Translations under genes and position numbers: made by a program
The notes under the pieces: generated by a model
The model's input: only the letters and a program-made list of their open reading frames with translations
What the model was told of the DNA's origin: nothing
Databases searched by the model: none
Part shown: positions 806 to 26,225 of the stretch, piece after piece
Layout of the letters: every line of letters starts with the position of its first letter
Numbering within the stretch: the first letter of the stretch is position 1
Sequence record: MF093736
Length of the DNA stretch: 50,564 nt
Direction: 5' to 3' (one strand)
DNA from: Shigella phage vB_SsoS-ISF002

Positions 806-1021
806 ATGTCTAACAAATTTTTAGTAGTTCGCGTTTACAACCACTCTAACGGTACTAGCAGTGAGATTCCTACTCTTTACAGTAAAGCTGATGGATGGAC
901 CGAAGAATCAGCGGTAGCTAATGAGAAGAAGATTGCTGAGATGTACGGTGACACTTGCGAGTTTGAAGTTCGAGAATATGCAAAACTCACTAACGAGAGT
1001 TACATGTGGGCAGATGCATAA
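806..1021 (+). CDS. hypothetical small protein (71 aa, start moved to internal ATG)
   Basis: ATG at 806 preceded by aaggaaag; followed immediately by the hairpin at 1025..1050. Overlaps the convergent spanin ORF. Confidence 0.35.
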   Translation: MSNKFLVVRVYNHSNGTSSEIPTLYSKADGWTEESAVANEKKIAEMYGDTCEFEVREYAKLTNESYMWADA

Positions 1022-1438
1022 AAGAAAAGGAGGCTTAGCCTCCTTTTTTTCGTCCTTACGAATTGAAAAATAAACCAGCAATAGGCCAATGAAAACGAGA
1101 GTCCATCCTGCAATTGCATCGTACCAGTTTTCTGGCTTTGTTACTGTGATGCTTTCAGCGTTAACCGTGTTAGCCTTAATGGTTGACACTTCAATTGACT
1201 TCTTCAAGGAAGAGTCAATCTTTCCTACATTGGACTTCTCAACTTTAACATCTCGCTTATCTTCGGATTTTGCGGTTACTCCTGCTAATTGCTTTGTGTT
1301 CTCCTCTCCGATTTGTGCTGTAACTTCCGGTTTAGATCCGATTAAACCGCTCAGGGCAGATGCCGTAGAGCAACCGGATAGAGAAATAACACCAACAGCC
1401 ACTGTAATCGCAATGCACGTTTTCTTCAGTTTCATCAT
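908..1438 (-). CDS. unimolecular spanin (N-terminal lipoprotein signal plus C-terminal transmembrane helix); true 3' end uncertain
   Basis: N-terminus [24 protein letters not shown] has a lipobox (LSGC); a hydrophobic helix [15 protein letters not shown] sits near residue 110-125. Position is downstream of the endolysin. The ORF continues through the 1025..1050 hairpin. Confidence 0.5.
1025..1050. terminator. bidirectional rho-independent terminator at the convergence of the two arms
   Basis: Perfect 10-bp stem aaaaggaggc / gcctcctttt with a 3-nt loop, flanked by an A-run and a T-run. Confidence 0.6.
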
Positions 1439-21493: not shown

Positions 21494-24367
21494 TTAGCCT
21501 CCTGTTTTTTCCTGAATGTAATTGTAAACCTCACCGCCCTGCGAACAAGACTCTCGAATCATTTTTTTGAACATCATTTCTACGCCCTGAGAAATTCCTC
21601 TCGGATCTGAACCGTTGTCAACTTTAACCTCCATACCCCTAACATCAACGACCGTCCCGCCTGCTGATTGGTTTACTGCCTTCGGCGCTGATTTAGATGC
21701 GTTAAATCCAGAGGTTGCAACACTACCCGCAGCGGCGGCAAGCGAGGTAACAGCGACACCCGAAGATAAAGACCTAAAACCAGAGGCGGCAGGCGTAGGA
21801 GTTGCCTGTGATGCCGCAGAAGCACCAGGAGACACCCCTCCAGCAAAACTCCACGTCTTACCGCCCATCATGCCTGAGATCGTATTGAATATTACCATCT
21901 GAGCAATCATCTTGATAATCATGCTAATGATGTTTTTCGCAAAGTCCTCAAAGTTTGCCTTACCTGTAGTGAGGAATTGGGTCATCATATCACTCATTCC
22001 ATTAAGTGAACTTGACGCGATATCATATACGTTACCATACATATCCATTGCAGAATCGCCGTAATCTGCAAATGCGCTTTCAGCACCAGCTAACCAGTCA
22101 GCGCGTTTGGCATCTTCCGCAGCGTAGTAATCATTTTGCGCCTTAATCATGTTCTGGAGTTTTTCGTCTCCCTCACTACCTCCAGAGTTGATGTAATCAG
22201 TGGTTATTTTAGCCAGTTCCGCTTGTCGTTCCATCTCGCGCGTGCTAAGACCGCGTGACGCGTTAAGCTGTTCTGTCGCCGCCGTCATCTCATTGACAAA
22301 CTTCAGAGATTTATCGGTAAGATCATTCAACTGTTGTTGCTTAACAATCTGATCGCCAATCTCGGCCTTCTGTTTTGCAAGCTCAATAACTCTCTCCTGA
22401 CTTGCCAGCAACGCTTTCTCTTCCGCAGACAACTGACGCTTAGAACTGGCTTCACGAAGAACAGCAATCGTTGCCTCGGTCGTAAACAGCGCTTTTCTCT
22501 GTGCGGAAAGTTTTTGCCCGATCTCCTTGTGCTCCTGCAATACCTTAAGTTGAGCCTTGAGTGAAATTAACTCCTTGTCGAATTGCTCTGTCGGTGAGCG
22601 TACAATTTTCGACTGCTTATTTCGTTCTCGGTTTCGCTTCTCGATCTCTTCTGCTTCTTTCCTTATTGCTTCCTTAGTTTCCTCGCTGTACTGCTTTTCA
22701 AGAGTGCGACGCTGCCTCATTGCTTCAATGTATCCCATCTCGCCTTTTTCTACACGAGCGTTAATAGCGTCAAGCTCTGAAGCCAACTGGTCGTAGTTGT
22801 CGCGAGAACTTTTTACGATGTTCTCCTGCTCCTTCAGTACATCAGCGCCGAAATCACTCATTCCAGGCAGTGACTGAGTTGCCTTTATGGCTGAGGCGAT
22901 AAAGTTTGAGATGTACTCATCACCCTTCGCTAGAATCATTTTGACCTGAATCACTGTACCCTGAACAACGTCGATAATCAGGTTTAGCGCCCCGAGTGTA
23001 TGATCACCAACCCATCCCCACGCGTCCGAAGCCCATTGTTTAATATCGCTCCACATCTTTTCCAGAGGAGTAGCGTTATCCGCGATCGACTTCATTCGCT
23101 TTTCCATTACGTCTGCGAATAGTTTGGTAGCCTCTGATACAGCCTCAGTTTCTCCTTTCGTCCGGCTTAATGTATCGATATAGGTAAGCTGCCCTTTTTC
23201 AAGGAAATTATATTGCTCGTTTAACTTCTTCAGACCTTTTACCGGATCGCTTGCGATTTTGTCGAACTCAGAAATAATTTGACTTGCTGACTTTCCTGTT
23301 GACGCTGACCACTCTGCGGTAGCCTTAGTGATGTTCTGGATCTGCTCGCGGGTGTACTTACCAGAACTTGCCAACTCCGTTACAATCTCGCGAATACTCC
23401 CAATGGTTGAGTTGCTTGTCTGAGCCACCTTTTTAGCAACAGAATCAAGCTCTTCAGCCGTGACTCCTGCATAACCTCCAGTCTCAACAAGAGCCTTCTG
23501 CATATCAGTTATTGACTTGTAAGAGTCATAACCAGCTTTCGCAAGAAGACCTAAAGAGCCGACAAGAACACCAACACCAACTGTGACCGGATTAATATAG
23601 CTGAGCAATACCTTAAATGTATTCCCGATCCCGCCGAACGAGTCCTTGATTTGACCGCCTTGCTGGATGGCAACCATCCAAACTGGCATACCTGACGCAA
23701 GAGATGTAACGACGTCGGTAATCTGCGCGGGAAGCATTCGCATTGCCTGCCTATATTGCCCAGCGCTAATACCTGCGGCATTCATAGCTCGACCCTGCTC
23801 TTTCAGTTTTGCGATCAGTGGCGCTGCTTCATTTGATAGTCCAAGCTGAGCCGCTTTCAGTTCCATTAACTCTGCGTGAGTTTTGCCAATAGCGTTAACC
23901 TGACTGTTCAGGGAATCCATGAACGCTTTGTTTTTCGCTGCTGCCTGATCTTTTGCTTTCGCTTCCTGCAATGCTGCCTGACCCTCTTCAGTAAGCATGG
24001 CTCGGCTGCGAGCAAGTTTTGCATTTTGCATGTCCAGCATTTCACCCAAACGGAAAAATGTTTCATCTGGAACAACGCCCTTTTGCCAGAGTTTATCAAG
24101 CTGCTGAGATGCAATCTTCAGCCTTTCCATTTTTGATACTGTAGGATCGATTGCCTTTTCTACAGCCTCGTACTCTTTGCGCTGGCGCTTAAGTTGCTCA
24201 GCGTGTTCTTTAGCCTTCTGTTTTGCAACCTCGGCCTCATTGATTAAAGACCCCATAGAGTCAGCGGCTTGGTCGTTAGCTTTTGAAAACTCTTTCAATG
24301 ACTTGACGGCGCGCTGCACTGTCGACACATCAACGTCAAGCGATAGACCTGCTACCTTATCAACCAT
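21494..24367 (-). CDS. tail tape measure protein
   Basis: 957 aa, long coiled-coil regions, hydrophobic Gly-rich C-terminal segment ([23 protein letters not shown]). Confidence 0.85.
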
Positions 24368-24406
24368 ACAACCCCCTTATATACAAAAAAACCGCCAGAC
24401 GGCGGC

Positions 24407-24733
24407 TTAGTTATTCTGCTTAGCAATCATTTCAAGCGCTTTCGCTTCCATGATCCTAACGTCCTGCAATGCCAGTTCTTCATCTTCTATTTTATAGATT
24501 TTAAACAACATAGGCAAAACATTATAGTCAAGACCATAAGCGCCAGCGCCTGAACTTCTCCACTGAGTGAGCATTGATGTAAAAACATTCCAAGCCTTCA
24601 CCATTTCAGCGTCGCCAATTATCGTTTCAGGTTCCTCGTCTTCATAGTCTGAAAGACTTAAACCAACCGATCGCAATTGTTCCTCTGTTGGCGGCTTCTG
24701 ATATAACAGATAGACCGCCTTTTTTAGTTTTTT
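24407..24733 (-). CDS. T segment of the tail assembly chaperone, reached by -1 frameshift from G (fusion product 25041 down to 24407)
   Basis: Frame is open upstream of the annotated TTG start and overlaps the end of G in the -1 frame. Confidence 0.55.
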   Translation of the reverse strand, partial: KKLKKAVYLLYQKPPTEEQLRSVGLSLSDYEDEEPETIIGDAEMVKAWNVFTSMLTQWRSSGAGAYGLDYNVLPMLFKIYKIEDEELALQDVRIMEAKALEMIAKQNN

Positions 24734-25041
24734 GCGCGGTGTCCGGCAAGAGCCTTGATGTAAGTCGCTGTCAGGTTGTACGCTGCTGAAGGATAATACT
24801 GAACCAGTTTTCGCGCATTTTCTTCGTTAAATTCTTCTTCAAGGTTCCATCCTGACGCGATCTTGGTAATGAACTCGCTGTCGTTCATTTCTCCCTGGTT
24901 GGCATACATATCCTGAACTTCTTTACTGGAAAGGTGGCGTACAGTGAAAATGATCGTTGCATCTTCACCGTTAGGCATGGTGAAGGTAACTGGAAGTTTG
25001 AAGTCTGGAAGTTGACCAAGAATAAAATTAAATTTAGCCAT
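24724..25041 (-). CDS. tail assembly chaperone (lambda G-like)
   Basis: 105-aa acidic protein between the major tail protein and the tape measure gene. Confidence 0.7.
   Translation of the reverse strand: MAKFNFILGQLPDFKLPVTFTMPNGEDATIIFTVRHLSSKEVQDMYANQGEMNDSEFITKIASGWNLEEEFNEENARKLVQYYPSAAYNLTATYIKALAGHRAKN
24727..24733 (-). other. slippery heptamer A_AAA_AAC for programmed -1 ribosomal frameshifting
   Basis: Minus-strand reading gca aaa aac taa; the heptamer sits immediately before the G stop and the -1 frame continues open. Confidence 0.6.
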
Positions 25042-25062
25042 GATATTTCTCCTGATTGGTTA

Positions 25063-25124: not shown

Positions 25125-25144
25125 AAGGGGGCGCAAGCCCCCTT
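25125..25144 (-). terminator. hairpin after the major tail protein gene
   Basis: 8-bp stem aagggggc / gccccctt with loop gcaa. Confidence 0.5.
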
Positions 25145-25155
25145 GTGGATATGAT

Positions 25156-25824
25156 TTAGGCACCAGGTGATGCCAGAGCGGATGAAACGAAAGTGAAATC
25201 ACCCTTCAGGGATACGGCGAGTTGTACCGTTTCCATTTCGTTTACTTGCGTAGATGGAATGTCGTTAAAAGACAAGATACCAGCCCACATGCGCATCTCG
25301 TTCGCTTTTGGAACATACATCCGAACCGCAGTTACCTGACCAGAAGAATCCAGCTTACGCAGAATAGGGTAGATCGGGTTATCAAATTCGTGCGCGAATG
25401 TGTAAGTTAGCGAGATCGCAGATTTAAACGTTGGGATCTGCTGTTCTTTATCGTCGGACAAGCACTGATAAGTATAATACTGCTGCTCGCCGCCGTCCTG
25501 ACCAATCTCCTGTACGCAAGGAATCTCAGTCCAGCCAGTAATCTTTGCAAAGCTCATCGTGCCGCCAGCCGGGAAAACAAGAGTATCAGAGGTGTCAATC
25601 CCAGCGAGAGTGATGCTTGTTTCCTGAGCGTCAGTAACAATCAGCACTCGACTGACCATCTTGGCCCAGGTTGACTGAGTTACAATAACGTAATCGCCTT
25701 TTACTAAGTCGCCCTTAGATGCAACTGTAGCAACAGGATTTTCTGCGTTAGTAATAGCGGTTGCCTCAATCTCTTCTCCGCGAGAGGTTTCCACGAAAAT
25801 TTGCGCGCCATTTGGTAAGTGCAT
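25156..25824 (-). CDS. major tail protein (start at internal ATG with aaggaga RBS)
   Basis: Position, size (223 aa) and a strong RBS; followed by a hairpin as is common for abundantly expressed structural genes. Confidence 0.65.
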   Translation of the reverse strand: MHLPNGAQIFVETSRGEEIEATAITNAENPVATVASKGDLVKGDYVIVTQSTWAKMVSRVLIVTDAQETSITLAGIDTSDTLVFPAGGTMSFAKITGWTEIPCVQEIGQDGGEQQYYTYQCLSDDKEQQIPTFKSAISLTYTFAHEFDNPIYPILRKLDSSGQVTAVRMYVPKANEMRMWAGILSFNDIPSTQVNEMETVQLAVSLKGDFTFVSSALASPGA

Positions 25825-25826
25825 AA

Positions 25827-26225
25827 TTAAGTCTCCTTTGTGTCTACTCGTACTGTAAAGCGAACCGGAATCATCCACCCGCTTTCATGTTTAACAATTT
25901 GATGCACGATTGCACCCTCGAAAATATAACCAACGTTAAGCATTTTACCATCTTTGAAAAAATCAGCAATCTCTTTTGCTTTCAATCTTGCTTCGTCAAC
26001 GCCGGATCCTGGAGGGAACACTACTCCGATCTGAACGATTGCGATGTAAGATTTACACTTTCTGTCAATGGATAGATAAAGCGTATCCCCTTCAATGTAG
26101 TTGAACCTCAGCCACATCCCGCCATCCTTCGGCGGTATGAAATTTCTGTTTTCCATGTAGTGAGGAAAGTCTCTGTACTTTGACAGAAAGGCGGATCGCG
26201 CCGCCGCTGATAACTCATAGTGCAT
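25827..26225 (-). CDS. tail terminator / tail completion protein (tentative)
   Basis: Position between head-tail joining genes and the major tail protein. Confidence 0.4.
   Translation of the reverse strand: MHYELSAAARSAFLSKYRDFPHYMENRNFIPPKDGGMWLRFNYIEGDTLYLSIDRKCKSYIAIVQIGVVFPPGSGVDEARLKAKEIADFFKDGKMLNVGYIFEGAIVHQIVKHESGWMIPVRFTVRVDTKET

Follow-up and report, generated by a model that had tools for sequence, protein, structure and literature searches.

We identified a very probable programmed -1 frameshift site in the tail assembly chaperone gene of Shigella phage vB_SsoS-ISF002 (MF093736; the entire stretch of 50,564 nucleotides analysed is called the window below), at which slippage on an A_AAA_AAC heptamer would make both a short chaperone, G, and a long one, GT. 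The window is a T1-like phage genome (Drexlerviridae, Tunavirus); it shares 99% identity with Tunavirus DELF2 in the region of the site and 100% across the 635 nt that hold the chaperone genes. The junction, read on the minus strand, is ...gcc gga cac cgc gca aaa aac TAA aaa agg cgg, and the features to which we refer are the following, listed in the order of transcription.

25156..25878, minus strand: tail tube (major tail) protein gene, 5' of G, a synteny anchor (PF08813 Phage_tail_3, 3e-70)
24724..25041, minus strand: G ORF, tail assembly (tape measure) chaperone, 105 aa (PF08748, phrog_569)
24727..24733, minus strand: putative slippery heptamer A_AAA_AAC, in the X_XXY_YYZ phase of G and adjoining the G stop
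24407..24727, minus strand: T segment in the -1 frame, DUF1799, 106 codons, stop at 24409..24407
24690..24719, minus strand: candidate stimulatory hairpin, beginning 7 nt past the heptamer
24674..24685, minus strand: possible internal T start, GAGGA-N4-TTG, for an 89-aa T-only protein
21494..24367, minus strand: tape measure gene, 3' of T, a synteny anchor (PF06791 TMP_2, 7e-75; PF09718 Tape_meas_lam_C, 7e-25)

The G ORF (25041..24724) is preceded by a ribosome-binding site, AGGAG at 25053..25049, lying 7 nt 5' of the ATG at 25041, and it ends in a TAA at 24726..24724. A preliminary description of this DNA had placed A_AAA_AAC directly ahead of that stop (...gca aaa aac TAA), with the -1 frame open from there into a listed ORF at 24407..24676. 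Both observations were confirmed on reading the minus strand: the -1 frame has no stop from 24826 onward, passes through the heptamer and closes at 24409..24407; the listed ORF is the part of this frame 3' of its first TTG. The T segment begins with the re-read C at 24727 (CTA, Leu), and G and T joined through a -1 shift form a 211-aa GT fusion. Two A6 runs are found at the junction (24733..24728 and 24725..24720, minus strand), as well as a second heptamer, CT A_AAA_AAG (24719..24725, minus strand), in T phase and two codons past the shift, which is created by the K-K start of T in this phage. It is of the dnaX type, the most slippery heptamer in E. coli, and a -1 slip there would lead to a TGA after ~25 codons; it is limited to this phage and its closest relatives (TAAaaaaggcgg), others, T1 included, having aaaggg or aacggg. 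On either side of the G-T pair there is a terminator-like GC hairpin with a T tail, the first 3' of the tail tube gene (25125..25144, minus strand) and the second between T and the tape measure gene (24389..24408, minus strand). The records of T1, Sazh and Solomon mark rho-independent terminators at the same two places, and the hairpins may lower expression stepwise, from the tube protein through the chaperones to the tape measure protein.

We consider it very probable that most ribosomes translating G terminate at the TAA and release the 105-aa chaperone and that a small fraction slip by -1 on A_AAA_AAC, with tRNA-Lys re-pairing from AAA to AAA and tRNA-Asn from AAC to AAA. The slipped ribosomes would go on to read CTA AAA AAG GCG... 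in the -1 frame as far as the stop at 24409..24407, yielding a 211-aa GT protein (...AGHRAKN-LKKAVYLLYQKPP..., the junction also being written ...AGHRAKN-LKKAVYL...) with a C-terminal DUF1799. As A_AAA_AAC is one of the weak heptamers in E. coli, the shift is probably inefficient. By analogy with lambda, the part common to G and GT would coat the tape measure protein and the rare T extension would bring in the tail tube protein, the rate of frameshifting setting the G:GT ratio; these roles are transferred to the present pair on the strength of its position and chaperone domain, not of homology.

The identities of the two reading frames and of their neighbours are clear from profile searches. 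G matches Pfam PF08748 (Phage_TAC_4) over its full length (E = 1.8e-36, 125.6 bits, gathering cutoff 21.1) and phrog_569 (E = 1.1e-43), and the T segment matches PF08809 (DUF1799; E = 2.7e-12, 47.2 bits, gathering cutoff 26). The conceptual 211-aa fusion aligns by its residues 1-210 to positions 1-212 of the 213 in phrog_17368 (E = 4.7e-86); since the fusion covers this profile end to end, such fused proteins are already present in phage protein collections. A homologous-protein search with the same 211-aa query gave one partial match, a PDB sequence search gave spurious proteasome matches only (E ~0.09), and a search of NCBIfam gave no match. Along the genome the genes run in the order tail terminator (PF13554), tube (PF08813), G, T, tape measure (PF06791 and PF09718) and M-like minor tail protein (PF05939), which is the lambda order U-V-G-T-H-M. 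Those marks of a G/GT pair (Xu, Hendrix and Duda 2004) that can be read from sequence are all found here, namely two ORFs placed after the major tail (tube) gene and before the tape measure gene, an overlapping and conserved -1 frame, a conserved slippery site in phase, and no conserved start for T, whose coding conservation begins at the shift site. Position, domain, conserved heptamer and frame switch thus support what the preliminary description had proposed, a G/GT-type chaperone frameshift 5' of the tape measure gene.

Taken as a bare 7-mer, AAAAAAC occurs in the window at about its chance frequency (19 observed, 15 expected), which is what could be said for a coincidental heptamer followed by a decaying or non-functional remnant of an ORF. 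In phase, canonical X_XXY_YYZ heptamers occupy 42 of the 14,858 codon positions in ORFs of at least 100 aa, so that 0.09 would be expected in the 33-codon overlap of the two frames, and G is the only one among the 66 ORFs of at least 100 aa in the window with an in-phase heptamer abutting its stop. Such rarity within a single genome is suggestive; the case rests on conservation across relatives. T is a conserved Pfam domain that over 1000 phage records retain intact in the -1 frame, and the heptamer is kept across deep divergence; by these comparisons of sequence, coincidence is effectively refuted.

In 1144 phage records, a tblastn search with the fusion recovered G and T as two adjoining pieces. 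Relative to G, T lies in the -1 frame in 41 of 43 Drexlerviridae loci, in six of six distant phages, and in all 80 of a set of IMG/VR loci that were retrieved with a T-domain alignment and extend down to 36% identity in T. The two exceptions among the 43 (IMG/VR contigs L034 and L036) are indel-damaged, with a truncated T, a frame relation of +1 and inserted residues; misassembly or degradation of the copies is the probable cause, and the two were left out of the statistics. Among the 43 loci the AAAAAAC-TAA junction persists at G identities of only 51-63% and between differing flanking codons, and AAAAAAC followed by a stop (TAA or TGA) is kept down to ~38% identity in G and ~36% in T. All 38 distinct junction contexts of the Tunavirus-like relatives analysed contain the heptamer, as do Dhillonvirus bob, Vilniusvirus NBD2 and Tlsvirus phSE-5 (A_AAA_AAC-TAA in each). 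The IMG/VR loci divide into 69 with AAAAAAC and then TAA or TGA, ten with A_AAA_GTY-TAA and one with A_AAG_GTC-TAA. At the equivalent place a Ralstonia phage has G_GGA_AAC-TGA and KW1E_UTAR has A_AAG_GGT-TAA; Mingus has an A_AAG tetramer one codon ahead of the stop.

The canonical heptamer has been lost in a group of Webervirus-like Klebsiella phages (L039, L040, L043 and L069-L078), which read gca aaa gtt/gtc TAA. An A_AAA tetramer is left in these loci, on which a single tRNA could slip, and the -1 frame of T is kept, together with the residues K-S-L-R-R-A-V-Y-L; Solomon, of the same genus, retains A_AAA_AAC. T1-like G-T pairs, 59-61% identical to that of the window, were also found in records labelled 'Campylobacter phage A143' (and ~20 others) and 'Streptococcus phage MBBL140'. 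Such hosts are unexpected for Drexlerviridae-like genomes of ~49 kb, and the labels may stem from contamination or mislabelling.

An extra A added by RNA polymerase slippage on an A6 run would likewise bring ribosomes into the T frame, and with two such runs at the junction it might be asked whether normal translation of slipped transcripts, giving a fusion that reads ...AKKLKK..., could account for T. The two routes differ in the junction that they predict, AKKL for transcriptional and AKNL for ribosomal slippage. We consider the transcriptional route extremely unlikely. For RNA polymerase to slip efficiently in bacteria, a run of about 8-9 or more is required, longer than the A6 found here; moreover, the relatives with G_GGA_AAC, A_AAG_GGT or A_AAA_GTY have no long homopolymer at all and yet retain motifs on which tRNAs can re-pair. 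The conserved C after the A run and the conserved phase also fit slippage by the ribosome, and we infer that the shift is ribosomal.

The position of the shift is narrowed further by the relatives in which the two frames barely overlap. In bob and three other loci (L079, L099 and L116) the -1 frame is closed by a stop directly 5' of the heptamer, leaving a frame overlap of 7 nt, so that a shift is possible there solely on the heptamer. Other slip points within the 100-nt overlap of the window (for example cgA_AAA_C near 24815) were considered and set aside, as relatives keep the -1 frame closed until the heptamer. Constraint at synonymous sites is centred on the same codons: across 37 conserved degenerate codon columns of G in 41 distinct sequences, every column varies synonymously except the final Asn, and variation is lowest at the two codons of the heptamer (Asn AAC in 37 of 37, Lys AAA in 39 of 40).

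The coding signal changes frame at this point. In the 38 distinct junction contexts, the zero frame is conserved 5' of the heptamer, where the -1 frame shows poor conservation and is interrupted by stops. Starting at the heptamer, the -1 frame reads K-K-L-K-R-A-V-Y-L-x-Y-Q-K-P-P-T, most columns having an identity of 0.9-1.0, and 3' of the heptamer the zero frame decays and gains stops. Two residues of the T segment, Leu1 and Ala4, do not vary even among relatives of 31-40% identity, and no stretch of the -1 frame is better conserved than the 16 codons that separate the zero-frame stop from the TTG at 24676.

That TTG bears on a simpler scheme, in which there is no frameshift and T is made alone as an 89-aa protein, possibly coupled to termination of G 48 nt upstream. 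The preliminary description had held that the downstream ORF lacks a proper start and ribosome-binding site, which is not so in this genome: a GAGGA at 24685..24681 is followed, after a gap of 4 nt, by the TTG at 24676..24674, an acceptable spacing, though the arrangement is not conserved. The listing of open reading frames also gives a T ORF from this TTG, and GenBank records of close relatives annotate T as a separate ORF, an annotation that reflects automatic procedures and not evidence. The TTG is the codon of a conserved Leu, codon 19 past the shift, and is TTG in 19 of 40 distinct contexts; in the others, about half of the distinct relatives, it is mostly TTA or CTT. The Shine-Dalgarno-like GAGGA is confined to the closest relatives. 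In T1 the equivalent codon is TTA (caa TTA aga) and no start codon occurs for 43 codons, and in 16 of the 40 distinct contexts the first possible start of T is codon 43. GAGGA-N4-TTG arises by synonymous choice, the codons being GAG GAA CAA TTG here and GAA GAG CAA TTA in T1. It is a plausible internal start, from which some T-only translation may take place in this lineage, and is a lineage-specific feature outside the conserved mechanism. Independent initiation would leave both the invariant heptamer and its synonymous-site conservation unexplained, as well as the strong conservation of the 16 codons 5' of the TTG, which begins exactly at the heptamer. Because the TTG start is not conserved and coding begins at the heptamer, independent initiation is not the conserved mode of T expression, and as a replacement for the frameshift we regard it as very unlikely.

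The preliminary description had suggested looking for a downstream stimulatory structure. A candidate is present in this genome: a hairpin at 24719..24690, with GGCGGU/GCCGCC enclosing UCUG/CAGA (dG -15.5 kcal/mol, z = -4.1 against shuffles), beginning 7 nt past the heptamer, inside the spacer range of 5-9 nt looked for in a stimulated -1 signal. Equivalent hairpins occur in T1, L016, L019, L030, phSE-5 and bob (relatives of the T1, Tlsvirus and Dhillonvirus kinds), but the structure is absent in the L026 group and in NBD2, and its covariation is weak, RNAalifold and pair counting on 18 sequences giving a 4-bp consensus helix with a double change at one pair only. Synonymous sites in the arms show little variation (GCG 33/38, CCG 36/36, CTG 36/37, CAG 31/34), a count confounded by the fact that the region codes conserved residues; neighbouring Pro and Ala columns outside the arms use three or four codons. 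We infer from this a plausible role for the hairpin as a lineage-dependent stimulator. An upstream Shine-Dalgarno stimulator of the dnaX type was sought and none was found conserved; the sole candidate overlaps a Gly codon, four codons 5', that varies among GGA, GGC, GGG and GGT, and it was rejected.

The relation of the slippery site to the G stop codon is more constant. A heptamer of whatever type abuts the stop, while in the tetramer variants (A_AAA_GTY, A_AAG_GTC and A_AAG CAC) the stop is one codon further on, and the stop itself alternates between TAA and TGA among relatives. The first T-frame codon, which lies across the stop, is always Leu and is written only as CTA, CTG or TTA, never as CTT or CTC; these are the Leu codons that create an overlapping zero-frame stop, whereas codon choice is free in other Leu columns. 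The codon after this Leu, the second of T, begins with A in all cases and encodes K, I, R or T. It is possible, though on balance we would lean against it, that the G stop codon itself belongs functionally to the frameshift signal: if the stop is decoded slowly in the A site, the tRNAs on the weak heptamer would have time to slip. If so, release-factor activity would tune the G:GT ratio. A weak heptamer abutting the stop throughout the family is a modest lead on how low frameshift ratios are set.

It is fair to say that the feature is already known, since a joined CDS named 'tape measure chaperone frameshift product', with its shift at this heptamer, is present in the records of Sazh and Solomon. 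T1, DELF2, LHE71 and many other records give G and T as two separate proteins, with the fusion not annotated. G and T are often misnamed 'tail length tape measure protein' (in RefSeq T1 among others), and the T ORF is often truncated. In T1 (NC_005833, our locus L131) the 149 nt after ST40 (891..1039) are unannotated and only the 55-aa ST39 is annotated; this apparent gap encodes the conserved KRAVYLLYQKPPTEEQL... in the -1 frame. Our literature search found no protein-level evidence for GT in this or any T1-like phage; searches on bacteriophage T1 tape measure frameshifting returned nothing, and those on Drexlerviridae and DUF1799 returned nothing specific. The scientific addition is small, a conserved Drexlerviridae tail assembly chaperone frameshift that is already annotated in relatives, and the practical value is one of annotation: T1, DELF2, LHE71 and similar records should carry a joined GT product.

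Among the known systems with which the site can be compared, lambda gpG/gpGT is the functional model. In lambda G and GT are made at ~30:1, a ratio critical for tail assembly, with G binding the tape measure protein and the T domain binding the tube protein (Atkins et al. 2016, PMC5009743, and, as cited there, Levin, Hendrix and Casjens 1993 and Xu, Hendrix and Duda 2004, 2013, 2014). Both systems have a pair of overlapping ORFs flanked by the major tail gene and the tape measure gene, and a minor G-T fusion arising by a -1 shift near the end of G, and the tape measure protein encoded here carries lambda-type TMP domains. The description of this locus as lambda-like holds for function and gene order but not for sequence: lambda gpG and gpT belong to PF06894 and PF06223, the window G and T to PF08748 and PF08809; a Pfam search of the window proteins gave no match to either lambda family, and hhalign against the lambda proteins found no homology (probability 0.1% for G and 0.9% for T). 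The slippery sites differ also, G_GGA_AAG lying five codons before the stop in lambda while the weaker heptamer here abuts it.

The nearest parallels to the heptamer itself come from E. coli. A_AAA_AAG of dnaX is likewise a -1 heptamer of lysine codons with a downstream hairpin at a short spacer, but it has a highly efficient AAG codon in the A site and an upstream Shine-Dalgarno stimulator, for which there is no conserved counterpart here, and the dnaX frameshift product is the shorter one whereas here it is the longer. IS1 insA-insB' uses the identical A_AAA_AAC and makes a low level of fusion protein in E. coli; it differs in encoding a transposase and not a phage chaperone, in having no established stimulator and in the unrelatedness of its proteins. 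Although A_AAA_AAC works with low efficiency in E. coli, its natural use as a -1 site is proven in IS1, and a weak motif is suitable where little fusion protein is wanted (Sharma et al. 2014, PMC4066793).

The closest comparison is with other phages of the T1 kind, such as Citrobacter phage Stevie, a T1-like phage whose tape measure chaperones are stated to have a conserved translational frameshift (PMC4319613). Sazh (MH729819; a Citrobacter phage, Tlsvirus) and Solomon (MT701592; a Klebsiella phage, Webervirus) have homologous G (PF08748) and T (PF08809) in the same order and the same -1 relation, joined at A_AAA_AAC-TAA, with the junctions cgc gta aaa aac taa in Sazh and gca aaa aac taa in Solomon. 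Their fusions are of ~210 aa (a joined CDS of 632 nt), against 211 aa here. Nothing material separates the three, the present lineage being set apart by a T segment that starts K-K and not K-R, and by its GAGGA-TTG.
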